From NCBI GenBank assembly GCA_026387455.1, contig JAPLLR010000046.1:68921-132920 (forward strand): a DNA stretch of 64,000 bases. The letters are read 5' to 3'. Every line of letters begins with the position of its first letter. Position 1 is the stretch's first letter. The notes beneath the pieces are model-generated. The model saw only the letters and a program-made list of their open reading frames with translations. It did not search any database and had not been told where the DNA came from. A program made the position numbers and the translations under genes. Shown here one piece after another: positions 6,001 through 36,000 of the stretch. This DNA is from Candidatus Omnitrophota bacterium (GTDB lineage Bacteria; Omnitrophota; Gorgyraeia; Gygaellales; Profunditerraquicolaceae).

Positions 6001-9000
6001 TAGCAGCCACAGAGCTCTTTACTTTCTTCTTTACCCTGAAGAATGGCGGGAAGCCGGTTTCTCTTATCGGCCTCTCTTTAAGATATCATTCCCGGCTCAG
6101 TGCTCCTTCCGGAGGAGTACGGGGTACGCTAGCCGCAATAGTTTTCTATGCAATACTTTATTTGGGATTTATCTACCTAAGCAAGCTGTTAGGCGTTGCC
6201 AGCTTCAGCATCTTCTTCAGCACGCAATTCCAGTTAGGCAATTACCTGAAATTAATATCCGGCGTACTGATGCTTTTCCTTTCTTTATATCTCTTACGTT
6301 ATGGCGTAGGCACAGCTTGGACAGTAGTCGCCAGCTTCTTGCGCACTTTCCCGATGCAGAGCTTGGCATTGACTTTTGCGATCTTATACCATCTTGCTGA
6401 AGGCTACGGCGTGGCTGAATCCTTAGCCAGCTCTCCTTATGCATGGGTGATAGCTTCAGTTTTAGGTATAGCGATGTTTCTTGAGAACTGGATCAAGGAA
6501 GCCTGCTTCAGGCTAACTCCTCGGCGCACGAAGCCTATTAAACCTGCTACAGAGAATGCAAGGACTATCGGGTTAATATATGCGGGTGGAGATAAATTGC
6601 GTTCACCGGTCTTTTCCGAAGGCTCCGTAGCTAATGCCACCGCCATGCTTCTTGACTGGTTTGACGGGATGAAGGATAGATTTGACTCTAAGCTGCATAA
6701 GACGTTTGAGATTAACCGCCCGGAGCTGGAGCGTATATTTAATCTCCTGCATCAGAGAGAGCTTGCTAGTGGAGCTACTTTGTTCCATCCGGTGCAGTTG
6801 GTTGAGGATGGCGTGGTCCACAACGCTATCATGCCTGACATGGAGGTTATACTTAGACGCCATCGTATCTTGATCGATATCGCCGCTTGCGAAAAGCAGG
6901 ATATCCTGCGCGCCTTGCAGATTAGAAGATGGCTGGTTTCAATGATGAGTGCTGACGCCCATGTCCAGGATAACGGCATCAACCTGGTAGATATAGCACT
7001 GGCTTTTGAGGAATCCGGCATTAGCAGAGAATTGATTATGTACCTTGCCAGCAACAAGTATAATGATACCAGCGATAAACCTTCCCAGGCCAATATCAGC
7101 ATAAATGGAGAATTAGGCCAGAGATGTAAACTTGCTACGCTGATTAATACTATTACTCATGCTAAGGCAGTGGTCTTTTATGACTGGACCGCGTTCGCCT
7201 TTAAGTCCGGTTTCATGATCGGTATGGATCTTATCGAGGAAACACCCGGCCTCAAGCACATGATTATTACGGACAGGAACGCCTGCGTCGGAGACCTGAA
7301 AGCCTTTATCAGAGATGTTGACTATATGCGCACTAATCCTAATCTGGTAGCAATCGTTCCCGGAAGAGGCACGACCTTTACCCGGACTAATATCGGCCAG
7401 GCTTCGCAGTTGATCGAGGAAGGGCACAGGTCGTATCTGCACGGCGTGATGCTCATCGGCGGTCAGGCAGGAGAGGCAGTGGGTACTGGATGGGGTAATC
7501 ATATGCGCGTCTTGTATTCGGAAGCGGTAAATGCGTATCTTACTCCCGGATATCCTTTAAGGCCGCTTACCTCCCATTATAGAGACCAGGGTTTCTACGC
7601 CACTAATTTTGGCGTCCAGGGTTTTGTCCCGCACGCTGTAGGTATTTCCGAGGATATCTGGGCAGTGCAGCAGCAGACTTATTTGTCCATGTCCCTTGGC
7701 CGCGCGCCGTTCTTTACTACCTCTGATGCCTTCTGGCATAAGAAGAGGGAATCCTGGTCTCATCCTGCATGGCTGTCTGCTATGCCGCGCTGGTCCGGCG
7801 GTCTGCCGCAGATGATGCTGGATAAGGTGATGCAGAATATAGGAGATATGGGGCCGCTTTCGTTATATGCCAAGGAAGTCAGGGCGCAGGGCGCGCGCTA
7901 CTTCCTGACCGCACAGTTTGCTTTATTATTCATCTTTCTTAATCCGATTTCTGCCATTTTCGGCTTTTCGCCTTTCCAGGGATTACTGATTTCATTGGTG
8001 ATCTGGGGCGCTGTTTTTAACCAGATTCTTACCGGCCACGGCCTGGTCATGTATATGGAATCAGCCGGCTTTAACAAAGTCACTGCTGTTATAGGCGCAG
8101 GCATATCTCTTCTCATAGGTAAATATTTAATGCCGCTGATCGGAGTCTGGGATCCGACGATGCTGATCTTTGGTATCTTCTTCGGTGGCTTTATCCGTGG
8201 CTTAGGCAGATGGGCCTTTACCCGGGCCCGCGACATGCTCGTTTTCCCCATGCTTCTTACTGTCCATGTGTTGGGGCAGAGAGCCAGGCAGACTCTGGAG
8301 TTTAAGATGTCCGGTGAAGAAAAGACGGATGCTCATGGCGTGGATGTATCAAGCTCTATTACCAAGAGGCCCTGGTATAACATTATCCATCCCGCCTTGA
8401 TATGGTTTATCGGAGTGGTTAATGCCTGGCTTAACATCTATGCTATACTTACTGAGCACCATCTGGCTAATATCCTGCTTATTGCTCCTTCTCTGCTTTT
8501 CTCCGTGGGTGTCGTGGTGGGTATCTTTGTGATGTCTGTTCCCAGAGGAAAGAGCCTGAGGTTCTTCAAATTCGTCCCGCAGCTGGCAGGCTGGCTTGCC
8601 GGATATATGGTCCATCGGACATTGGACGGGTTATTCAAGATGGGTGTCCTTGGGCAACTTCCCGCAGTTATACTGGCATTGATTCTCATCAGTTACTGCC
8701 TGTGGCTGATCTGGCCGAAATCAAATACGCCGCATCACAGCTATTGGACCCGATTTATCTTAGATTTTGGCCGCATGTTCACTCTCTCATTAAGTATCTT
8801 CCTTTGGCCGTTCCTTGTCCCGCACACCCTCGTGATTAACTTCCAGGCTCTAAGCGGATCTTATATGCCGGTGTTTACTTCTGTTTTGCTTACGAAGATA
8901 GCTATTGTCGTCGCGGTATTAATCTTTGGCCAGATATTGAATAAGGCCGTAGGGCTATGTGAATTCCATGCAGTAAACCGGCGCTATATAAAGTGCTCTG

Positions 9001-12000: not shown

Positions 12001-15000
12001 CGCTTGGTTATATTGCGCAGCATATTGAGGCTGGAGATATCAGGCCCGATGTCAGGCTGCGAGTTGCAGAGAGTGATCCTGAGGCCTACGTACCCGATGA
12101 TTTGCGCACTGGTAGTCGACCTATACGCGTGGGCTTCCTGCCCATGAAAGGTGATCCCTGGCAGGTCGGCCACATCTTTGTTATCTTGGAAGCCGTAGCT
12201 AAATTAAAACTGGATAAAGTAGTGGTCATGATTGATAATTCTGATCCTATCCGTAAACCGAACTTAACCTCTTTAACCGTACGGGAAGCCATAAGTAAGG
12301 CCTTGTTCGCGCATCTGGGTTCGTTAGTGCAGTATACAGCTATAACCAAGGAGCACGAAGAGCTTTTTGCCGTCGATGGAGAGACCGCGATTTTCAAGTT
12401 TATAAGCTTAAATAATAAATTGCCTGAGAACACTTCTCTTGAAGTTTATTATATGGTTGGTTCAGATCATCGTCATTGGGAAGTTAAGAAGAAGCATCCG
12501 CAAACCGACGCAGAAATAACTTTACCTGACACCCCGCAGAAACTTATTCTTAATCAGCTTCCTGAGCCGGATGTTATGAAGCGCTGGCCGGCACTTCAGG
12601 GAAATCACTCCGGTCTCTATGGCTATCAGCAAGGCATAAGCCCCACTGTTAATATACTTTTCATAGAGCGCATCGGAGAAGAATTCAAAAAAGATCAAGG
12701 CGGCAAAGAGGTTGAGTTGGAAGCCTTGGTTGAAAGCGTAGGAAAAAATATCGGCCACATCGCCAAGATATTCCAACCTATGGATACATCATCTACCCGT
12801 GTCAGAAAACAGTATCATTACTGGACAGTTCCCTGGGATATATTCCTTTTCGCCAGGGCATTTAAACTTTGGGGATTTGAAGATTCATTTGTTCCTGGAG
12901 AAAAAGGTATTAAATGGTCAGAGCAACAGAAGGCAGTTGCCGAGGGATTATGTGGATTTATTAATTCAAATGATTTTCCTGCAATAGAAGCAAAATTGAA
13001 AGAAGCCTATGGCCCGGCAATGAATATTTTTGATATGTTCTTGATGCAAGCGATAAACCAGTCCGAGATACCGGATAATAAAGAGCGTTTTGAGAAAATA
13101 CGCGGATTAATTTTTGCCAGAGGCGAGGAGTTTGTGGGAGAGGTTGTAGGATCTGCGGATGCGCAGTTAGATGAGGCTCAGAGGGAAGTATCCCCGGACC
13201 TTAGCACCAAAGACGCTTCCCATGAAGAAGGTAGCTCGTTTTGCGCAATTGCTCTTATGCCCGCATTATTGATTGCAGCAGTGGTAATCCTGGGGATACT
13301 GGTGGTTTATTTCTCGTTCAGGCTTCGCGCGATTAAAGACAAATTAGCAAAATTAAATTCAATTTATGCTGCACAAACAAAGGAGGCAGAATGTCTACCT
13401 TACTCGAACTTGGGCAGGGACTCGAAGTCACTCATATCCTCTCCCGTCCCTACGGACTCCTCATCTATGCCAAGTACCCCTGCTGGTACTCAGAGTTCAG
13501 TTTCCTCCTCAGCCCAGACGGCACCATCAGGGGAAAGACTCATGACGGAAACTGGTATGAGATCAGCTCCGAATTCTCCGATATCATCAAGGCCAAGGTC
13601 AATAGCGTCCTTATCTACGAGCGCAACCGGTTCTACGGATAACAGCTGTCAAGGAGACCGTTCTTCAAGCGGCCTTCCGGATGAAAAAGTGGATGCCGCA
13701 ATTGAAGAATTTGGCGGAATGGAAAGTATCTGGAATCTGGGCAAAATCAACGATGCGGATTGGTTATCTGTGCAGGTTATTGGCTTAGGGATGCGCGATG
13801 CCGCACGCAACTTGGACGCCCCCAATTTCAATGCTATTGCTAGGCTCTTAACAATGCGCGGGGTGCATTTTGCACTTGCTCCTGCGAGATGGAAGATTGG
13901 TGCCTGCATAGGATTCCTCAATGACCAGCCCATCATTATTATTCCAAAAGATGTCACTTATCAGGAAGTTGCCCTTGAAATCCAGGCAACAATAGTCCCC
14001 GCATTAACCCACAAAGAAAACCTAAAAATTGACAGTTTGCAAGGTCGCCTTTATGCGCTAAGGGATAGAGATTTAGTAAAGCGCATTGAGCAGGTTAAAG
14101 AAGGCATCTTCGGTACAATCAGAGACCGTAGTTCAGGGAGCGTGGTTTCTGGTTGCTATCTCCAGCCGCAAATTGCCAATAGGGCAGGCACCCGCGCTTT
14201 TATTTATGTTAAAGAGAAAACGCTTTCTTCCATGCGGCTGGTAACGGCCGCAGAACAAAGCCGTCTATCCACAAATAAATCCTATCCGGCTATCATGCCC
14301 GTGGAAAATCTTCCGGAAAGAGAGCCTCGGCCGGAAGAGTTAAATATAATTATTTCTGCCTTTGGCGGAAGTGATGCGCTTTTGGCCAAGGGAATCAATA
14401 TGAATGTAAGGATAAATCCGGCCCTGGAGTCCCCTGCTGAAGTAAGAAATGTCGTATTACATGTTAACCCCCGCATTTTAAGAGCGCCGCCCGAGCAGTT
14501 AAGGGTTATCTTCGAAGGCCACGAATTATTCCATCTGCTTCATCCGCAGGAACCCGAATCAGCAGCCAGAAATTATACTGTCAGTTACCTCCTGAAGAAC
14601 GGTCCTGCGTCACTTCTTAGCCATATCGGATTCTTAAATTGCAATTCATTAGGCATTCAGATTAAACACTCTCAAGAGTGGTTATCTGAGCTTAGGCAGG
14701 CTTTGGGCGATAAGTTTTATCCAGCCGAAATGGTGCCATCAGCCGGCCAGATAGAGGATATTACAGAAAAAGAATTAAATACGCTCATAGATCTTTTTGG
14801 TGGACACCATACAGGAATTACCTTAACTAAAGATAATGTCAAATGCTATTCTGCGCTAGATGTTCCGGCAATAATCGTAGGTGACATTCTCTACATACAT
14901 ACCGATATCATAAGAAGCACACCGGAAACACTGAGGGCATTTGGAGGGCAATTAAATCTTATTTTCAAAGACCATATGTTTTTCTACTTGGCCTTTCCTG

Positions 15001-18000: not shown

Positions 18001-21000
18001 CTGAAAAACCAGACATCTATATCTTCGTATATAGCGCCATTTCCAACGAAGAACCACTTAGGAAATGTTTAGCAGAAGGACTATTTGATGGGATTTATAG
18101 CAAGCCAAGCTGGGATATCGTGGGTGCTTTGCATGGCGTAACTCTGCTTTTGCCTACTGTTGGCATGAGAGACAAATTTCTATCTCTCATGACGGCGAAA
18201 ATGCATAAACGTTCTATTGAAGAGATTATTTTACCCCTATCTCTTGTCCAGGAAGTATTAAATTCAGATCCAGAGCTAAAAGAAGCAGCACGCAATATCT
18301 TTGTGGCAGAGGGACCGGGGAAAATTTATTATGTCCTCAAGCCAGGTCTTGGAGGTATTCCGATATTGGAGGTGAGAGCAGGCCAAGAGGAGATGGTGGG
18401 AGGACTGATCACAAAATGCGAGCGTCTGGAAGGAGGAGCACAATCTCTGCCAGGCGTAAGCTTAGATTTTACCTTTTTTGCTTGGGCATTAGAATCTAGC
18501 TTAAGCATTGCAATATTTATTATATTAGCTTATCTAATCGCCTGCTATTATAAACAGAAGATACTGGATTCTTCTCTCACCAGCCGTGCTCCGCCATTTG
18601 TCCGGAAGACACTTAATTCCTCACTCATAGATTTACCCTCCATAAGTATGAGGAACAGTGTTTCCCTTTCCTCCCTACGAAACATCTCAAGTGAAAAACT
18701 TCAACATCTGTCCGCCGCATTGCTAATAGTAATGGGTATTGGTATGTTAATTTTCGCGGCATTTGGCCTTATAGAGCCGCTATCTTCTCTTACCGCATTC
18801 AGTTCACCTCTTCTGTTTGGTACAATTTCCCAAGGCCCTGCGCAGAAAGACGATGTAGAAATGGTGATATGGAAGGCAAAGTCTGCTGTGCAGTTAATGT
18901 CAGGGTACACCCACGATCTTAATAATTGCCTGCAACCCCTTATATTCTCAATCAGGTTTTTAGGAGAGTCCCACGGCAAAGAATCTGAGGCAGGAAACTT
19001 GATAAGGGGATTACATGAAGAGTTCGTTACCTTACGCAAAATTTTACAACCGCGTCCCATAGAAATAAATGCGGAGAATGCCGCAGATATACTAGCTCAG
19101 TGCCGCGACTTGGCAAAGAGACTATCTGCCTGGGGGAATAACCTTGATGAAAACGTTTTTATTTCCAAACTGATAAAGGTCCTACAGGTGGAAAGCCTGA
19201 ATCAAGAGCAGGAAGAGTTGATAGACCACATCAGAATTAGTATCAGGGATCTTAAGAAGCTAATACAGAATCTGGTAAGTTTTATGAGAGGTTCACCGTA
19301 TCTAGACCGGAATGAAGAGGTAGACATTAACCAGCTGCTAGAGAGGGTGACTCGGGATCTGTGTAAAGATGTAGAAATACAGTTATCTCTTGCCGAGAAT
19401 CTGCCGCATATCCGAGGCAACAGTGCTGAGTTGAAGAACGCATTTACGAACCTCATTCAAAATGGCATTGAAGCATTCCTTTATTCTGATATTCCCATTG
19501 AAAAACCGAATCTTATATGCGTTGGCACGAAGCTTTCCGCAGATCAAAAGCACCTTGAAATCGAGATAAAGGATAACGGGTCAGGGATCAGCAAAGAGGT
19601 TTTACCGCATATTTTCGAGCCCTGGCTTACTACAAAAAGCGGAAAGAGCGTAAAGGGCGGAAGGGGCGGAACTGGCATTGGGCTTACTATAGTCAAAGTA
19701 GTCGTTGAGTCTTACGGTGGTACAATTTCTGTGGATTCTTCCTACATAGGTAGCTGCCCGCAATTCCACGGAACCACCTTCACCATCCGCTTGCCGGTTA
19801 CGCAAACCCAGGTGAGAAACCCTGACTTGTTAGAAGAAAAGTCTTCTTCCGTATCAGGATTAAGCATAGGCGGATTTATATCTAAGGAAGCGTCCCCGGA
19901 CCGTAGCGCTGACAAAGACCAAGCCTCTACCCGCACCGACGAGCCGCTTGGAATGGCGGGAAGGATTATTAATTTAAGGGAGGTGGCAAAATGTCTATCT
20001 TACAGGACTTTGAAATCAGCCATGTATTACCTAAGCAGGATCACGTTATTGTGTATATCAAGCATCATTTATGGTGGAAAGAGTATTGTTTCTTGGTTTA
20101 TTCAGACGGCAGAGTCAAGGGAAAGGCCGGCAGCGGCCTGTGGCTTGACGCCAGCGAAGAGCTTAAGGCTATTCTCATCGCTAAGCTCAGGTCCCTTTAT
20201 ATTGAAAAGCGGAGTCTTATCTACCAGTAATTTGCTGGAATCTTGGCCGCTGCGGAATCAAACAGGAAATGGACTACCTTCCGTGGCTGGTGGGGTCCGT
20301 TCTCCTGCCGCAGCGGCCATAATTTTAATCTTTGTCGTAGGACTATTTCTCGCCGCGCTAGGAAATGTCGATGCCTCATTATACGCGGCGATAGGAGTTA
20401 TTGTATCCGGCCGCTCTGATAATGATAGGGCTAGCATTCTAGAGCAGGAATTACTGCGCGGCATAGAAGAGAGGACTCCCGCCCAGATCAAAAATAACAG
20501 AATGATAGATTTGACAACTACGGGAGAATTTAAGATTACACTCACACGGACGCATCTGGATGATTTTGATGAGAAGGATAACCCTGAGGGTCTGGGTTTA
20601 AGAAAATGGTTTGCCAAATACAGAAAGGAAGCGGAGATTTCTACCGCCGGTATCCGCGGTAATCAGAATATTAGCTATCCTCAGGATACCCGACCGCAAT
20701 ATCCTTTGCATCTTTTTGCTATTATGCTGGCTACTTTGGCCAAGGCAAGAGTAGCTAACAGCAAATATCCTGACAGAAGATTGCATAAGATAGCCGCTTC
20801 CGAGGTAAGGTATAACTCTCCGGCATTTGTAGAATTGATTGCCAGGATCCAGGCGCAGGAAGGCATAACCACGCATACGGTTAAAGATTATCAGACTATG
20901 CCGATATGGATGGTTTCTTTCCTGGCTTTCATGCTTGATTTTATCGGCGCTGAGTATGTGACTGCCAGCCACGCCATTGCCACTTTTATCGCTACCAAGG

Positions 21001-24000
21001 ATATCAATAATCAGGGAAGCCAGTACCTGCCCGAGGAATCCCTCGAGTTCGTCACAGAGATAGAAAATATTTTCAATATTATAGAAGAGCAGGGCAGCTA
21101 TACGATTACTATCGCGGCCAAAGATAACCCTTTGATCGACACCGGCCTTCTTTCGCAACTGGAAGACGGCATACAGCTTTATGTTGAATATTTAAGAAAA
21201 GGCGTTGCTACTACTGCGAATCTCGAGAGAATCAGGGGTATGAAAAATCCGGTGGTTGTTGATTGCGTGGGCGGATGCATGTACCGGACCATGTCCAGGA
21301 TCTTTAAGCATCTCGGCATCGACCATAAAATAAAGTTCCTGCATGCAACTGAAGATTCCTTCTTCCACGGCGTAGGCAAGCTCGATACTAACCCTAAGAC
21401 CGGAAACCGCGAGTTCTATGATCTATCGTGTGACTTAGCGATGACTAAGTTCAACAAGAAGACGCAGCAGGTCATCCTCCCCGTAGTGGAAATGACCGGC
21501 TATAGTGAACTTCTTAAAGACTATCCGGTGGGAACGGTGTTGTTGATGACTGACCCGGATGGGGACAGGTTAGTCACCGCCCAGATAGAATCCGCTAGCC
21601 AAGTCTCTTACTTACAGCGCCAGGGAATAGCATATATTGATATGGGTGGTTCACGGGTATTGGCTGTTTATACGCCAAACCAGTCGTTCCTTATGACAAT
21701 CGCCTATCAAAAGAAGGCGTTGGAAGAGGCCGGGCTATGGAATAAGTTCAACTGGTTTATGATAAAGACCACGCCTTCTTCAAGGGCCTGGCTTGAATGG
21801 GCAAAGAAAAACGGGGTGCCGGTAGTGGAAGTTCCGGTTGGTTTCAAGGAGATCGCCTCGGTATTAAGAAAAGTAGAATACAGCCTAAGAGAGAATCCCG
21901 GCAAAGATGTGGTCATCACCGATATTTACGGCAACGATATTAACTTAGGGAACAATCCCCGTCTACTTTTTGGCGGCGAGGAGTCAGGTGGGGAGATCTT
22001 TGGCCCGGCGGAGTTGATCAAGAGCGTAAACGGAAGATTGATTCTTGCCATGCGGGAAAAATCTGCCGGAGAGGCGATGGTGGTCACTTCGGCTTTGGCC
22101 GCATACGCTCAAAGCCGTGATCAGACTTTATCTCTCTATCTCCAAGAGATCTTTGAGGAGAATCAGATTATTTCACGGTTTGATTACCGTGCGGACGTCA
22201 TATATTTTAATCCTAATGAGAAAGATCCGCAGAAGCTTTTAAGTGAAATAGATGAAGGCTTGAAGATAAGAACCAAGAACGATACCTATTTTTTGAGTAT
22301 CGCTTTAGCTTTAAGAAGCGGATTGATCAATATAGGACAGGCCAGGGCTATTCTCAAAGAGGCGTTCAGCGAGCTGGATTTCACCAACTTAGAGGATATC
22401 CTGTTTGTGGGAGATGGCACATACCTTGTATTTAGTGATAAGTGGGTCGAGATAAGGCCGTCCGGGACAGAGGCAAAGAATAAGGGTTATGCCGGAGGCA
22501 CAAGCCTGATGGACTGCGTCAATTACTCAGAGAGGTTATCCAATTATTCCGGAGAAAGAAACAGTCTGCACGCGCAATTTATAAACGAAGGTTTATATAC
22601 AGAAGTAAAAAGCAGGGCAAATAAGATTTTCCAGGATTTTGCGCAAAAAGACGGTGATCCTCAAGGCTTCCAGCCGCCTGTTGATACGGAATATCTCACT
22701 CAATCCACTTCTGGTATGGATCGCTCTTCAAGAGGCCTTGCGGATGAGGCAGTGGATGCTGCAATTGAAGAGTTTGGCGGCACAAAGAATATCTGGAACC
22801 TGGGCAAGATTGACAATTGGATGTCGGTGCAGGTTATCGGTCTAGGCATCCGCGATGCCGCACGCAATTTAGACGCTACCAACCCTAACGCCATTGAGAT
22901 GCTATTGAGGGCGCGCGGGGTGCATTTTGCCCTTGCGCCTCCGGGATGGAAGATCGGTTCCTGCATCGGTTACCTCAATAATCAGCCCATCATTATTGTT
23001 TCAGAAGACGCTACGTATCAGGAAGTCGCCCACGAAATCCAGGCAGTACTAGTCCCCGCGTTAACACATAAAGAAAACCTAAAGATCGACAGCTTACAAG
23101 GCAGGCTTTATACGCTAAGAGATAGATATTTAATAAAGCGCATTGAGCAGGCCAAGAGAGGTGTCTTCGGAGAGATCAGGGATCGCAGTTCACGCAGCAA
23201 GGAGGGTATATTTCCGGGCTCGCCGATGCGAAGAGTCAAGCTGCTTCCTGCCGCGCAAGTTGAGCAGTTCAAGAAAAGAATTCTTGCTGCTCCGTATCTT
23301 TACTCCAGATTTGAAATAGCAGAACCCAAAGTACAAAGAGAGTCTACATCTACTCCCGTAAGATTCAAATGGAACCTGTTTGAAGAAGAGATAATATGCA
23401 TTGGTCAGCACGATGTAGAATTAATGCAAGAAGTGGCGCAGGCAGCCGAGTTCTTGCGCGCGCATATAGGAGACTTAAAGGAGGATCTCTCCGGCTTACG
23501 CGGTTACTATCAGCTTGATATAGAATTCCCCCACGAATTATACATAGAATTTACCAGCAAGTCAGATGCCGCAGCAAAGTTAGACACGACAGGCAGGTCA
23601 CTTATTGAAATTAATTGGTCGATAGTAAGAGATGATCTGCCTTTCAGGGCCAGAATTGAGCTGCTGGATAAGATTTTCTACTGCGCATATCCGCAGCGCA
23701 ATGTGCATAATCTTGTCGATCAATATTTTATCTCCCATCATGAGCACAGAATCAGTTTTATTGAGACTCTCTCTAAGATCTCCCTTGCTGAGGAGCCGCT
23801 ACGCAACTGGCAATATGCTTCTTCTATTATAGAGAAAAGTAAGGCAGTTTTTGTGCTCCTGCCAGTTAACAATGCCGCGGATAAACTGCCTGCCTGGTTT
23901 AAGAGAATGCATGAAGAGCTGATGAAGATGCCCAAAGATTTCCATTTTGAAGTGATTGTTTGCGATAATGGCTCAACTGATTCTACCCGCAAAGCGGTGT

Positions 24001-27000: not shown

Positions 27001-30000
27001 ATGAAACAAGGCATGCTGATATAATGGCCCTGGGTGGGATGTTCTTTCAGATATTCGGTTCCCTAAGAAGATGGATGCCTCTTGCTTATAAGCTGAATTG
27101 CCCCACAGGGGGTCCGTCCTCTAGCGAGCTCCTGAGAACTCACCTTCCGTACATGCCCGTATATTTGCAGGAGGCGGTAGAAAAAGCATTTACAAGGAAA
27201 TTTACTACTGCTGAAGACGTCGCATTGTGTTTGGAGTCAGCATTGAAAGAGTTAGAGGGGAACACTGGGATAATCAATGATTATTTGGGGATGGATAGCC
27301 CCGGAAGCTTAGTCAGGAGCTTCTTAGGCATAAGCGAAGGAAGTGTGAGTAGAAGGGGTGTGCCCCGCACAAGAGATCATTCTAAGCCGCGCGATGGCTT
27401 CACCAGCGATGATGTCGTAGAAGAGGCCATGGAAATAATCAGTTCTAGAAGGATCCGGACCTTTGAAACTATCGGATTGGACAGCCCGCTGGTAAACGAG
27501 GTATTAAGTTACTATACATTGACCGCGCAAATTGAGAAAGCAGCCAGATTAAGACAACTTGCAAAGGCAGGCCGTATTTGCGCCGGGCCTATGCGCACCG
27601 CCTATGGAGCAAACCTTCCGGGATGCATATTTATCGCTACCAATGACAATCCTAACTCCGCTGCAACCTTAGTCCACGAAACCAATAACGGGAATCATCA
27701 GGAAAACCTCAATGCTGAAAAAGAGTTTATGCTTTATCGCCTTTCTCAGGCTGATTTATATTCCGCCATTCAAGATTTAATCGCACAGCAAGTTTCAGCT
27801 GGTATAGTGCATGATTTCTCCAAGACCGCTTCTTATGACCGGATGGTTAGAGGCATATATAGAGTCCAGGTGAATCCAGCCAGGGCCATAGCCAAGAGGC
27901 CAGAATTGAACCAGAAAGCGTGTTTCTTGTGCCGGGAGAATATGCCTGCGGAAGAAATAGGTATAGAGGTGGATAGGGATTGGAAGATTTATAGCAATCC
28001 CAGGCCTTATGAGAAGAACCACTTTGTATTAGTTAAGAAAGAAAGAGGAAGTTATCATCCCTATCAGGAAATTTCTAAATTATCCGATATCGCCACTGCG
28101 TTAGAAACTATTTATAGATTAGGCATAGTACATAACAGAAGAGATTATAGCCTTATTTTTAACAGTCCCCATGCCGGAGCCAGCTCAGAACATTTCCACT
28201 TCCAAGGATTTGAATATCGCCTACCTATAACAGAGCTTAATGTCGAATATCTAAGAACAGATTCCACACTCAGGCTAGGCAGAGTTTTTGACCCAACTTA
28301 TCCTGCTTCTTGTTATGTGATTGAAGGGCAGAACAAGCATGATGTGGCAAATCATCTCTGGAGGTTAATAAAGTTAATTTACCAATTTAAGTTCGGTTAT
28401 AATCTGCTTTTTACGGTTGATAAAGATTCAGATATGTTGCGGGTTTTTGTTATCTTGAGGAAGGCGGAGAGATCCTCGATCTCTACGACAGGGGCATTGT
28501 CCAATGCTACTGCTGATATTTGCGTGGTTTCTGGCATGGCCATAGTTCATGAAGACAAGCAGGCAGAGAATATAACCGAGCAGGATTTTAGGGAAGAGAT
28601 CGTAGAGACTGTGGCCTACTCTAAAGAAATAGAGCGACTTTGGTTGAGATCTTCTTCTAACACCGGCATTTCCTTGCATGCTTTCGTCTTACCTTTCAGC
28701 GTTGAGCTAACTGCGCTCGTTTTATCCGCCATTCTGATCTATTTTGTCATTCGCTATTTAAGGCAGCAGATCACTAGCAGCGGAGTTTTTATTTTTGTTA
28801 AAGAGAAAGTGCTTTCAATTTCCGTGGCTGGCTGCCGAGCGCAAGCGAAGGCGTCCCTGAAGAGCGATAGCGTTGCGAGCGAAAACGAGCAAAGGGATGG
28901 GGATCAAGCCGCCGCAGCGGCCGCTTCAAAACAGCTCGCTTTCCAGAACAATCCAGACGTGGATGAGCTAAGGCCGTGTCTTTCATTTACCTGGCAGCAC
29001 TATTTTGGCAATATCTGTAACGGTATACAATTGCCGGATGCGGTCATAAAAGGAGAGTGCGATAAGAAGATGATCCGGGAAGTGCTGGAAGATACTATTT
29101 CATCTGCCAACAGCGGAATAGAGAAGATTAAAATACTTTTAGGAGATGAAGTTTCAGTCTGTCTTGATTCAAATAAGTCGCCATATTGTATCTGGTTAGG
29201 AGATGAGGGAAATTGCGGGCGCCACGGCAAGGAGAATGTTGATCCTGAAACGTGGTTTTGCTTAAAATTAAGCTCTTTCAGCAGCTTTGAATTGGAAATG
29301 GTGGAGAGCATATTTACCCTCATAAAGAAGCACGCAGAGGCGTTTCTGGGGCAGGGAGAAAAGATTGAGGGATTGCAGGTCTTAGACACATTTATAAAAG
29401 CGCTGATCAAGCATTATCGTGACATAGCCGAACGCCTGGGTTCCAAAGGGCCAGGTACAGATTATTTATCTCCGGATGACGCCTCAACCCGAAGCGGTAA
29501 TCCGCTTTCTGCTTTAGCTAGGATCAGGTTGGCGTACTACAGGCTTATTTTAAGATCCCGATATGATTCTTTTGATCAGATAGAGGATATTGACAGCTTT
29601 ATAAAAGATAATATTATGCCTGGGCTTAAGAGGGCTGTCGGGGATGGTAATGCCCAGCTTTTAAAGAGCTATGTGGATTCCGGGCATATCCGCGCCGGGC
29701 CAAGAAAGCTTTTTGATAAGCTCCAGATTCATGCCTTCAACCACAACGGTTGGATCATCTTTGATCCTTCCCTCCTCGATAATGAGAAACAGCTTATTAA
29801 AGTTCTGGCCCATGAAATAGGCGCTGTTTTCGGTCTGGATCATGCAACAAACAACATTATAGGTAAGATTGTAGCCCAGGAAGCGCTTACCCCGGAAGAG
29901 CAAAAAGTCCTCAAACAAGTCTCCGTGAGAATTAGTGGGATTATGAGAGAGCGTAGATGCGGAAATTCCGTTGATCCGGCCGCAGATAATGATTCCGGAA

Positions 30001-33000: not shown

Positions 33001-36000
33001 GTGGCCCTCCCAGATTGTTTCAGGAGATGGAAAGTTTAATCAAATCTCAGACTCGTTTTGATGTTTCAATAGACGCTTTTAATTTTATCGATGTTAATGA
33101 AAAGATCTGGATAGTCGTCAAGCCCGGCCTTGCCCCTTTGCGCCTGAAGCAGGTTATTGCTCACGAAATTGGCGCGATATTCGGCGTACCCCACCTTTAT
33201 AATTTTAAAGTACTTGAACAGATAGCTGTTGGCAGACAAGGCAGCCAAACTCAGTTTTGGTCTACTCTTGAGGCCATAATAGTCCTCAATTATTACCGCC
33301 TTAAGCCCGGCGAGATAATTATCCCTGTAGATAATTGCGAGTATCGGCTTATTATGCTGCCCTCTAAAAAAGCGCGCGCGATTATTCAGGCGCTTAATAA
33401 CGGATATGATCCGGAAGAAGTATTAAGGGAAATGAATGAATGTGATCGGTCGCTGCGGAATCAAACAGGAAATGGACTATCTTCCGTGGCTGGTTGCCGA
33501 GCCCCGAAAGGGGAGAAGGCGTCCCTTGCGAGCGAAAGCGAGCAAAGGGATGGGGACATTGTAGATTCATCTTGCCCCGTTGCAAAGGGAACAAAAGAGA
33601 TTCTTCCACCTTCCGTGGCTGGTGGGGAAGTTTCTCTTCTTTGCAACGGGGTTTTAGATAAGCCTGCCGCAGCGGCCGCCACTTTAAAGATTCCCAGTCC
33701 GCGTGGCTATATCCCCGACTTTGAGGAGAGGTTCATCTCGGTGATCAATAACGTTTGCAAACCGGCCGAAGCAGATATTTCCAATATTATTTCAACAGAG
33801 CAGATTGATTGGGTGGCGATTATGTCTTTGATCAGGCATAATAATCTGGTGCAGTATGAGTTTGGCCCGGATACCATTGTAGTCCACGCCTTAAATATAA
33901 AAGATGGCCAAGGGGGAGAACTCTTCGGTTTACCGCTTATCCCGGGAAGCTATCATTTTAAAGATCTCCTTCCCGCGGTGTCTTATGTTTCTGCATTAGA
34001 TAATAAGCTGCACATATTCATTACCCGCGCATTCTACGAAGATTACCTGGAGATTTCGCATATGCTGGTGGCCGACGCGCATCCTTCATACGCCCATAGA
34101 AATCTGCAGACTCTGCGCTGGGCAGAGCTTATTGACCATGAGGCCTTTGAGAATTCTCGTCGGTCGCTAGAGATACTTGCAGAAGAGCGGCATAGCCAGG
34201 CGGCACAGCGTGCCTATAACTTTGCTCTAAAGGGTAAATTGAGCCCGTATCATAAATGGGTGATTGATACCCTCGCCACCACTTCGGAAGGATGCCGTCA
34301 TCTGGAGATGATCCTGCAGGAAAGGCGGCCTGGATCCGAAGAGTCAGTGCAAAGAAAATATGAAAAGTATTTTGTCAGATACGTTAAAAACGCCATTTCC
34401 CGCAGGAAATTCTCTACTGAAACTCAAATAATGGCGCATCATCTTTTCCGTGTTTATCATCACGGAGACTGGCAGGCATTCTGTTCTTTATGCGAAGCTT
34501 GTGGTCTGGATGTTATTGAATTAAATGACAGGATAGAAAAGGTAGAGAAAGAATATGTCCTTAAGGAGATCTCGGGTTTTAGTCCGAGCAGGATTATCAC
34601 TAATAGCGGAGAGACTGATGTTGAAATAGATGAAGCTAAGGCTATCGTTAGGAAGATGCCCAAGTCTAAATATTTCAATTTTATCTGGAAGGTGGTGCAA
34701 AAGGATAGACTTGGCAAAAGCTATTTAGACATGCTTGGCGATAGACTGCGAGAAAATTATGAAACGGAGATTTTCTCTCAAGAGAAATTTATGCCTGCGG
34801 TTAGACATCTATTCGCGTTATATCAAAGGTATGGTAGTCAAGCCGGTTTGGTTGTTTCTAGTGAAAGCGAGACAGTATGCAATATTGTCTCGGACTATTT
34901 GGAGCAGTTGAATCTATTGAACAGTTATGTCAAAGCGCGGGATCGCCTTGGAGGGTTAATTGCTGAATTTACCATAATCGGTGGCGTCATCTACCAGGAA
35001 AAGATCATACCCGTTACCGAGTGTCTCGTAGAGTTATCTGAGGGCAAAGGTTATTTCAGGGGATTGCAGGATGCCTCTCTTGAACAAAAAAGCGTGATCG
35101 GCAGAAATATCCTTAAGAAATGTTTGAGCGTAATGGTAGAGTCAGCCAGGCGTGGCCTGATTATTAGCGATGGTAAGTTCACTAATTTCGGGATTATGGC
35201 TAATGGGGAGATTGTTTTATTTGACCTTGGGCCGGGCACATTTTTATCAACGGATGATCCTGAGATTGTTTTGAGTTTACTCCAGTTTGACGGCGTTAAC
35301 GGCATGAATATGTCCAGGCTGCTTAATTTGGCAAAGCTGGAAAGTAATGAGGGAGTCGTATCCACCATAAAAGATATAAAGGCGGTGGAAAGATTGGGAG
35401 AAGAATTATCCCGTGTCTGGCTGGATCTTGTTTCCGCAAGAGAAGTCAATAGCGGTGAAACACCGGAATGGGATTGGAAGAATGACGGGATAGAATTTAT
35501 GGGAAGATTGTCTCGGGCTATCGCCAGGACTCCCGAACAAAAAGCCGCTTCAGCGCAGGCGTTTAGAAGGATAACCTTTATTCCGACGGAGATGGCGATG
35601 GAGCGGATTCTGCGCGTGATTATGCAAGAGTGCGGAATTGCAGGAAGGGCGGTTTCTCGCCAGCTCTACCTGTCAGGTATAAATAAGATGATGCTAGTGT
35701 TGGGTGTTGGCATTATGCTTCTTGTTTTTGCTTATCCGGTATTGTTTGTTGCGTTAGGTCCGTTTTGCATGATCAAAAATGACGATCAATTATCGCAACC
35801 CCTTGAGCCGCAAGCGTCCCGTAAGGCAGGAAGCGTCCCCTTGTTCTCGATTGATCCGCCCGCGTCTAATCGCCTTGCTAAGATTGTCCTTGGCTATCTG
35901 GCTGCTTTCCTCGGGCTTGGTGCGTTAAGCGCACGTTCCGCCGAACCTTATCAGGATGGCCTGCCGTATATCCGCTACTTCCAGAACAATGCTCTGGTGA

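Follow-up and report, generated by a model that had tools for sequence, protein, structure and literature searches.

Hairpin elements with an invariant tip nest within giant genes of Omnitrophota

The 64,000-nt stretch of DNA analyzed here (contig JAPLLR010000046.1, positions 68,921 to 132,920, of the Candidatus Omnitrophota assembly GCA_026387455.1; hereafter the window, with position 1 as its first letter) lies within one giant gene and carries three copies of a single family of hairpin elements, of which copy a is intact, copy b is truncated and decayed, and copy c is composite. All three are type-1 (T1) units. The window, with a GC content of 45.8%, is one stop-free open reading frame (ORF) on the plus strand (nt 3-63998), open at both ends and encoding 21,332 amino acids (aa). 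The host gene thus specifies a giant multi-enzyme protein of at least 21,332 aa with approximately 37 transmembrane (TM)-like helices and a set of scattered, unrelated Pfam domains, namely HATPase_c, Response_reg (receiver), PRTase (phosphoribosyltransferase), Pkinase, PGM/PMM (phosphoglucomutase I-III), GT2, DUF4922, a GT5 starch-synthase-like domain, Metallophos, GDH (Glu/Leu/Phe/Val dehydrogenase), Glucosamine_iso (glucosamine-6-P isomerase), and PAS. With a reading frame tens of kb long, numerous TM helices, and GT5, PGM/PMM, kinase, HATPase_c, and receiver domains spread along it, it fits the "archaeovorin" or multi-enzyme giant-gene class of the Omnitrophota. Such genes encode the largest proteins predicted in any organism. 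Self-comparison on DNA and protein level revealed very little internal repetition within the window. A search with the 600 aa around unit c among 5.8 billion proteins returned zero homologues at E<=1e-3, the host gene itself included, and an exact 25-mer from the head shared by units a and c had 0 matches in genome, metagenome, and viral collections.

Unit a (20245-20318, plus strand) is an intact T1 hairpin of 74 nt, defined by its sequence, its repeats, its fold, and a match of 53 bits (E = 2e-15) to covariance model R1. Its left arm GGCCGCTGCGG (20245-20255) forms an inverted repeat with the 11-nt right arm CCGCAGCGGCC (20308-20318), giving outer arms of 11 bp. Toward the center follow a 7-nt spacer, AATCAAA, on the left side only (20256-20262), an inner stem of 12 bp (20263-20274 paired with 20296-20307), a UA bulge (20275-20276), and the 19-nt tip CCTTCCGTGGCTGGTGGGG (20277-20295), which is invariant. 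The whole unit folds into a near-perfect hairpin (dG -50.6 kcal/mol, z -7.45), with the tip adopting the fold CCU-U-CC[GUGGCU]GG-U-GGG, in which CCU/GGG and CC/GG pairs around a U.U mismatch carry a hexaloop. The unit is translated as LRNQTGNGLPSVAGGVRSPAAAA and is directly followed by a TM-like helix. Approximately 105 nt upstream, a small GC hairpin, AGGCCGGCAGCGGCCT (20124-20141, plus strand), contains the right-arm-like sequence CGGCAGCGGCC and may be a remnant of another unit.

Unit b (28805-28922, plus strand) was recognized by its sequence and its similarities to the other copies. It comprises a palindromic box, GAAAGTGCTTTC (28805-28816), the tip core TTCCGTGGCTGG (28820-28831), a 66-nt segment within the tip, here termed b-insert (28832-28897), the 3' tip part TGGGG (from 28898), and the right arm CCGCAGCGGCC (28912-28922). 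It is devoid of left arm and inner stem, the covariance model matches its tip core alone, and it shows no significant fold (z +1.8). Unit c (33447-33678, plus strand, 232 nt) is bounded by the inverted repeat CGGTCGCTGCGG (33447-33458) and CCGCAGCGGCCG (33667-33678); inverted repeats of the GGCCGCTGCGG/CCGCAGCGGCC kind therefore bound both a and c (20245/20308 and 33447/33667). The T1 tip of c holds, between GGCTGG and TGGGG, a GC- and purine-rich b-insert of 57 nt, i.e., 19 codons (TGCCGAGCCCCGAAAGGGG...GCAAAGGGA, 33494-33550, plus strand), homologous to 28832-28897; the lengths of both b-inserts are multiples of three. Further on, unit c contains a complete type-2 (T2) unit of 77 nt (33575-33651, plus strand; 47 bits to the covariance model, with the consensus structure of the T2 family). 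Its arms are CCCCGTTGCAAAG and CTTTGCAACGGGG, its inner stem pairs AAGAGATTCTTCC with GGAAGTTTCTCTT, and it has its own copy of the unit a tip (33609-33627) on stems that differ in a compensating manner. Unit c as a whole folds with z -5.3. Its outer unit is structurally broken, as is unit b, according to fold and covariance model.

Within the window, the covariance model matches these sites only and the plus strand only. All three lie between 20 and 34 kb, with none in the other 45 kb. The right arm CCGCAGCGGCC occurs seven times at <=1 mismatch compared with 0.95 expected, and 0 of 100 shuffles attained seven occurrences. The units are located between recognizable domains of the protein, in which SVAG and AAAA have no other occurrence over its 21 kaa. 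A preliminary description of this locus had reported a 44-nt repeat, a third partial copy, and a 13-bp perfect inverted repeat, all of which were recovered: self-BLASTN aligned 20245-20291 with 33448-33494 (95.7% over 47 nt, E=2.7e-14) and 28820-28903 with 33482-33556 (77% identity, E=2.5e-8), and the inverted repeat lies at 33575-33587/33639-33651. The stable RNA structure it had anticipated is likewise predicted, as the z values of a and c attest. It had further read a 129-nt insert between direct repeats in c. The repeat exists (CTTCCGTGGCTGGT, 33481-33494 and 33610-33623, 14 nt, 129 nt apart), but its interpretation as a target-site duplication was rejected, since the presumed insert would end within the 13-bp hairpin, leaving the left arm inside and the right arm outside. 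The two TTCCGTGGCTGG copies are the tips of two separate hairpin units, the 13-bp hairpin being a complete second unit. Nor did we find the paralogous coding sequence said to surround the repeats. Outside the elements, the flanks share neither protein nor DNA similarity, so the repeat islands stand alone. The pattern can be accounted for without gene conversion. The copies do not all end alike, since a terminates in GCCGCAGCGGCC-AT and not in ...GC. The inverted repeats bounding a and c had been overlooked, and the single ORF across the window is a further correction.

The tip 19-mer CCTTCCGTGGCTGGTGGGG was searched exactly in a species-representative genome collection and in the JGI/ENA metagenomes, resulting in 75 genome and 55 metagenome stretches (130 in total). 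By our own estimate (596 Gb, even base composition), about four matches are expected by chance in the genome collection. According to record titles, nearly all genome matches are metagenome-assembled genomes (MAGs) of Omnitrophota or MAGs with the same gene style labeled Planctomycetales; the few matches in Streptomyces, one Spirochaetota MAG, and soil contigs look like chance. In locus L059 (QMQO01000030.1, labeled Woesearchaeota; loci were compared as 8-14-kb pieces and carry L numbers) and in many "uncultured Planctomycetales" MAG contigs, the tip lies inside ORFs covering the whole locus; element and gene style suggest that these contigs are mis-binned or mislabeled Omnitrophota. In total 126 of 141 tips (~90%) are situated in long stop-free frames, mostly spanning the entire locus. 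The family is a concrete and searchable nucleotide feature almost specific to Omnitrophota giant genes, and the 19-mer together with the covariance model can serve as a practical marker by which fragments of such genes are detected in metagenomes and joined. Giant ORFs are not the exclusive location of the units, since some lie in ordinary spacers between genes, oriented as the flanking genes (L015 ~1025-1114; L050/L121 ~394-476; L099 ~1301-1403). The gene upstream in L050/L121 is greA-like and the downstream product PilZ-like, as judged by eye; L099 has the same upstream gene.

Throughout the family, the tip tops a hairpin in 113 of 122 distinct contexts. The mean minimum free energy around tips is -42.5 kcal/mol, compared with -24.3 for random windows and -30.4 for shuffled flanks. 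In an ungapped, tip-anchored alignment, positions -9 to -4 are paired with +1 to +6 in 70-98% of the units using all pair types, and 94.3% of the cells are paired versus 78% after shuffling and 48-59% after sliding. Double-sided changes amount to 204 versus 59 expected, and the observed covariation score was not attained in any of 500 shuffles. The consensus fold of the T2 family shows compensatory changes in 10 of 21 pairs, and variant tips carry a compensatory change of C2-G17 to U-A. These data show a common plan for units of 65-85 nt: GC-rich outer arms of at least three families, an A/U-rich asymmetric spacer, a variable, complementary inner stem, the UA bulge, and the invariant tip CCUUCC-GUGGCU-GGUGGGG. 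The arm families are GGYCGCTGCGG/CCGCAGCGRCC for T1, GYCCCGTTGSAAAG and its complement for T2, and GGCYYCGGC/GCCGRRGCC for type 3 (T3), with additional arm types being present.

Among the 126 tips within ORFs, the reading frames are distributed 53/38/35, the tip being translated as PSVAGG, LPWLVG, or FRGWWG and always from the sense strand. As it is read in all three frames, its conservation is at the nucleotide level. This bears on the idea that the units represent a conserved peptide module, e.g., a linker or inter-TM loop of the form LRN...PSVAGG...AAAA, in which the palindromes are incidental. T1 and T3 arms do keep one fixed frame each (xLR...AAAA and GLGLA...AGA), with 28 of 28 T1 arms in one frame and T1 lengths of 65-83 nt in steps of 3, and the TM-like helix right after unit a would suit such a module. 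However, T2 arms (modal unit length 80 nt) occur in all three frames just as the tip does, copies exist between genes, the stems covary on nucleotide level, and the mean hydrophobicity profile around the units is nearly flat. The fixed frame of the T1 and T3 arms finds its simplest reason in survivorship because, in the two remaining frames, their spacers contain stop codons. The peptide-level motif was rejected on account of the three-frame use of the tip, and we regard a peptide module as very improbable. A systematic association with TM helices was also dropped, just a weak hydrophobic bump being found after T1 units. For an SSSP(V/L) motif noted close to units of other MAGs, the window shows no enrichment, containing it once.

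Direct evidence of mobility came from the T2 units, which are repeatedly found inside the hexaloop of another unit (...CCTTCCGTG|CCCCGTTG...CAACGGGG|CGTGGCTGGTGGGG). An empty site is available for comparison: L067 carries an intact T1 unit, and L072, from a related genome, carries the same unit plus 84 nt, comprising an 80-nt T2 unit and a second CGTG. With 80 nt and 4 nt adding up to 84 nt, the reading frame is kept. The upstream flanks of both loci are ~90% identical by eye, and the insertion was read directly and confirmed by script, the MAFFT alignment having left the gap unopened. Approximately 3.9 kb away on the L072 contig, a second, identical 80-nt T2 unit occupies a tip-like site, ACCTCTTGCGTG^GCTGGCCC, again between two CGTGs; L072/L075 thus carry identical T2 copies at two sites. 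CGTG lies 5' of every clear T2 insertion and is also found after the element, the insertion point in the target unit being CCGTG^GCTGG in the hexaloop. T2 is thus demonstrably a real and recently active DNA insertion with a defined target, and the small mobile intragenic element inserting in frame, as envisaged in the preliminary description, was right in substance, although not in the anatomy proposed for it. For T1 we infer mobility.

Nested units occur in many MAGs. The composite plan of unit c recurs at ~80% nucleotide identity with different flanks in two other MAGs (L008 1316-1534, L068 6776-6968). The b-insert (TGCCGAGCCCCGRAAGGGG.GAAGGCGTCCCTTGCGAGCGAAAGCGAGCAAAGGGA) is likewise found there (L008 ~1436-1519, L068 ~6795-6865) at a fixed position in the tip after GGCTGG and may constitute a third kind of small insertion that has a tip target of its own. 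On the minus strand of L061 (~2140-2260), a 38-nt piece composed of the 3' half of the tip and the T2 right arm (CGTGGCTGGTGGGGAGAAC.CGTTCATTTTCAACGTGG) is present as a tandem triplication, which shows local slippage or expansion at nested units.

Based on this evidence, we favor, with about an even chance of being correct, the interpretation of the units as selfish mobile hairpins, i.e., small, nonautonomous, Omnitrophota-specific elements whose mobility depends on structure and strand and which are tolerated in frame in giant genes. Propagation would take place at the DNA level by a structure- and strand-dependent reaction, with the folded sense strand as substrate and the tip serving as both recognition feature and preferred target. 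T2 units, as shown above, enter the hexaloop of another unit (CCGTG^GCTGG), leaving CGTG on both sides. Candidate enzymes would be a Y1/HUH-type single-strand transposase, an IS110-like recombinase, or a tyrosine recombinase. In a giant ORF, only stop-free insertions of a multiple of three would survive, as the data imply, and the long, fast-evolving linkers of these ORFs would tolerate them. In the manner of selfish DNA, the copies nest within one another and decay where they lie, with a being intact, b having lost its left half and bearing an insert in its tip, and c bearing that insert and a T2 unit. The broken copies (b and outer c), the nesting, and the uneven distribution agree better with selfish DNA than with a signal that is required. 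Such DNA, able to live and nest in frame within giant genes, would add peptide linkers and potential recombination points to them.

Several observations weigh against this interpretation. Mobility was seen for T2 only. Neither T1 nor T3 shows a clear duplication of its target, and the T1 copies of a single genome have diverged from one another. Even the T2 unit of the window is flanked by CTTG...TTTT, i.e., by no clean duplication. No transposase or recombinase is linked to the elements, no search for one having been made. With ~1-5 exact-tip copies per MAG, as estimated by inspection of the contig list, the family is unlike typical MITEs (miniature transposable elements with inverted repeats) or repetitive extragenic palindromic (REP) sequences. 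MITEs and REPINs conserve their ends, the opposite of the tip conservation found here, and a 19-nt tip that is identical across genomes of 32-60% GC on freely covarying stems is the pattern of a ligand-binding RNA. Furthermore, the sense orientation of the units is not explained by stop codons, and an unrelated, riboswitch-controlled operon conserves the tip in reverse complement, hinting at a function of the sequence itself.

The half-units and the positions of the copies also allow for a different type of DNA-level activity, namely that the units are recombination sites at module boundaries, where a site-specific recombinase acting on the folded tip, comparable to integrase and attC, would excise, insert, or shuffle in-frame domain cassettes and thereby help to build multi-enzyme giant genes. 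In line with this, the window units sit between recognizable domains, two nested units of L061 flank a 1.7-kb segment, and half-units are joined at the tip to unrelated sequence in b, in outer c, and in L008 (T2 left arm with T1 right arm); CGTG on both sides of T2 would also be expected from a crossover within a shared core. In contrast, no presence/absence polymorphism of a unit-bounded cassette was found, all units point in the same direction, and no recombinase is linked to them, although no search for one was made. The attC consensus GTTRRRY is absent from the arms as inspected by eye (GYCCCGTTGSAAAG and GGYCGCTGCGG being unlike it), the units are scattered in the ORF, and their center rather than their ends is conserved. 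The only internal paralogous block, which is also the sole sizeable DNA duplication of the window (13656-14141 versus 22719-23198; 486 nt at 78%, 162 aa at 76.5% identity), shows no relation to the hairpin elements, and no unit lies near it. We therefore judge recombination sites of this kind to be improbable.

Including variant tips, 104 units are in sense and one in antisense orientation. Survivorship through stop codons was considered as the cause and found to be insufficient, since antisense units keep on average 0.80 open frames per whole unit compared with 1.63 for sense units, and the tip, when reverse-complemented, is free of stops in every frame. Within the stems, G.U-type pairs exceed A.C-type pairs (59 versus 14 in inner stems, 253 versus 68 in whole arms), and for 105 of 107 units the sense strand folds more stably than the antisense strand. 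Pairing is thus maintained on the sense strand, although part of the G.U excess could be mutational, originating from a leading- or non-template-strand bias. The sense strand has a positive GC skew in 77 of 78 giant-ORF loci, and in 71 of 78 at third codon positions; the giant genes therefore look co-oriented with replication. The orientation bias of IS608 is linked to replication, and by analogy to IS200/IS605, an insertion bias tied to single-stranded DNA at the lagging-strand template is possible for the present units. For mobile DNA, an invariant tip on covarying stems in sense-only orientation is an unusual combination, which can be tested as hairpin-recognizing, strand-specific transposition or as an RNA signal.

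A cis-acting RNA signal in giant-gene transcripts, whose tip binds a conserved protein or a complementary RNA while the stems need only to pair, would accommodate many of these features. Possible roles are mRNA stabilization, processing, antitermination, or pausing along transcripts of at least 100 kb, with the mobility of T2 being a secondary, parasitic offshoot. The identical tip across MAGs of such different GC content, the covariation with all pair types, the compensatory exchange in variant tips, the strict sense orientation beyond stop-codon effects, which intergenic copies likewise follow with respect to their operon, and the G.U excess with the more stable sense fold all argue for it. 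Bacterial selenocysteine insertion sequences (SECIS), lambda boxB, and iron-responsive elements (IREs) likewise present an invariant apical motif on top of a stem whose sequence is free, SECIS even inside coding sequence. The present units share this architecture with its covarying stem but differ by having no in-frame UGA, no Rfam match, and demonstrable insertion and duplication as DNA. For Rfam 15, no match reached the gathering threshold within the window, and sub-threshold matches were only generic hairpins (miRNA precursors) far below it. Moreover, copies are few and uneven, as seen from their restriction to 14 kb of the window, two of the three window units are structurally destroyed without a sign of counter-selection, the elements nest and duplicate like selfish DNA, and the G.U excess may partly reflect the mutation bias mentioned above. 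Structure on the sense strand is strongly supported. A part in pausing, cleavage, or control of internal initiation, as the preliminary description offered for a structured RNA signal, is hypothetical, and we rate an RNA-level signal as distinctly less probable than selfish DNA. Both are compatible and not mutually exclusive.

The RNA reading is kept alive mainly because a regulated transcript contains a perfect antisense partner of the tip, 15-19 nt in length. This exact reverse complement, CCCCACCAGCCACGGAAGG (core ACCAGCCACGGAAGG), is found without a hairpin beside GGGGTCAG(T), in the operon sequence GGGGUCAGU-CCCCACCAGCCACGGAAGG. Exact antisense tips are located at L012 1003-1021, L110 8584-8602, L127 2876-2894, L098 792-810, and L028 6635-6653, with further sites of 15 nt at L131/L132 3258-3272 and L133/L134 3262-3276. 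The operon is headed by a cyclic di-GMP (c-di-GMP)-I riboswitch (Rfam RF01051/RF03167), and the motif lies either in the leader or at the junction of gene 1 and gene 2, in different frames and conserved in several genomes. Encoded are a small, seemingly Omnitrophota-specific protein (536 homologues, the few named ones all being Omnitrophota), for which Pfam gave no match, and a small secreted protein. The antisense motif might pair with the tip as RNA or act as a site at the DNA level. In a variant of the RNA signal, regulation would proceed by pairing with this c-di-GMP-riboswitch-controlled transcript. More specifically, the tip might be a functional RNA address repeated in the largest known bacterial transcripts, its GUGGCU hexaloop and flanking pairs being read by a conserved factor or by the complementary sequence of the c-di-GMP-I operon, with the mobile T2 units as its parasites. 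We consider this specific version doubtful, slightly more so than an RNA signal in general. If true, it would couple the fate of giant-gene mRNA (stability, processing, translation) to c-di-GMP signaling; the antisense tip in a c-di-GMP-controlled operon in any case offers a testable regulatory link.

Comparison with known elements places the family close to several groups. Among these are the Rickettsia palindromic elements (RPEs), small in-frame palindromic repeats in genes that are translated and form several families per lineage (PMC10969869). The present units similarly lie in frame within ORFs, are translated, and comprise multiple families within one lineage. They differ in host (Omnitrophota versus Rickettsiales) and size (65-85 nt versus ~100-150 nt), in the conserved tip with free stem covariation, the sense-only orientation, the concentration in giant genes, and the nesting at a defined loop position; furthermore, each RPE family is reported to encode a conserved peptide, whereas the present tip is read in three frames. 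With a host that is Omnitrophota by the titles of the related records, this argues for analogy and not membership.

REP sequences and REPINs with their Y1 (HUH) transposases (RAYTs), as well as IS200/IS605 elements, use hairpin substrates and single-strand chemistry (PMC3116915, PMC3333891). Apparent common features are hairpin-forming, nonautonomous units whose function is tied to the folded single strand, strand-biased orientation, and a tetranucleotide at the foot of the hairpin (CGTG here, GTAG-type in REPs). However, REPs are extragenic, high-copy sequences with conserved stem and variable loop, whereas the present tips mostly reside in long ORFs at low copy number, with an invariant loop and a free inner stem. 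No RAYT or TnpA gene is linked to them, no search for one having been made. IS200/IS605 elements generate no target duplication, while CGTG is found on both sides here, although it is possibly part of the element. IS1397, ISKpn1, ISPpu9, and similar insertion sequences insert site-specifically into the center of REP palindromes with a short duplication (PMC1525189, PMC12288879). Entry into the central part of an existing palindromic repeat and a short duplication are thus shared, but the inserter here is an 80-nt hairpin of the same family, which has its own target copy, encodes no transposase, and nests like Russian dolls.

Correia and ERIC MITEs have terminal inverted repeats and form long RNA hairpins in transcripts, cleaved by RNase III or RNase E in known cases (PMC10969869). 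The present units likewise have terminal inverted repeats predicted to fold into long RNA hairpins within transcripts, whereas Correia and ERIC elements lie mainly between genes, are found in either orientation, and conserve their ends. With respect to MITEs in general, the units are smaller than ~300 bp (65-85 nt, 232 nt for c), lack coding capacity of their own, and have terminal inverted repeats in the form of 11-13-nt arms (GGCCGCTGCGG/CCGCAGCGGCC, CCCCGTTGCAAAG/CTTTGCAACGGGG); target-site duplication and insertion polymorphism were found for T2 in related genomes, not for the window copies or T1. Of the subtypes, T2 alone thus agrees with MITEs in general. In the literature searched, there was no account of hairpins, palindromes, or MITEs in Omnitrophota giant genes, nor was any element found that unites an invariant apical target with self-nesting, sense-only orientation, and near-restriction to giant genes. 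The family is apparently undescribed.

In addition to the units, a 12-nt perfect palindrome, GAAAGCGCTTTC, accumulates in giant-gene DNA. At <=1 mismatch, it occurs 34 times in 938 kb (L001-L130 and the window), compared with an estimated two by chance. Of 38 T1 units, six have it 8 nt upstream of their left arm and one other has it at a distance of 11 nt upstream, while the window copy (28805-28816) lies 3 nt before the tip core of unit b.

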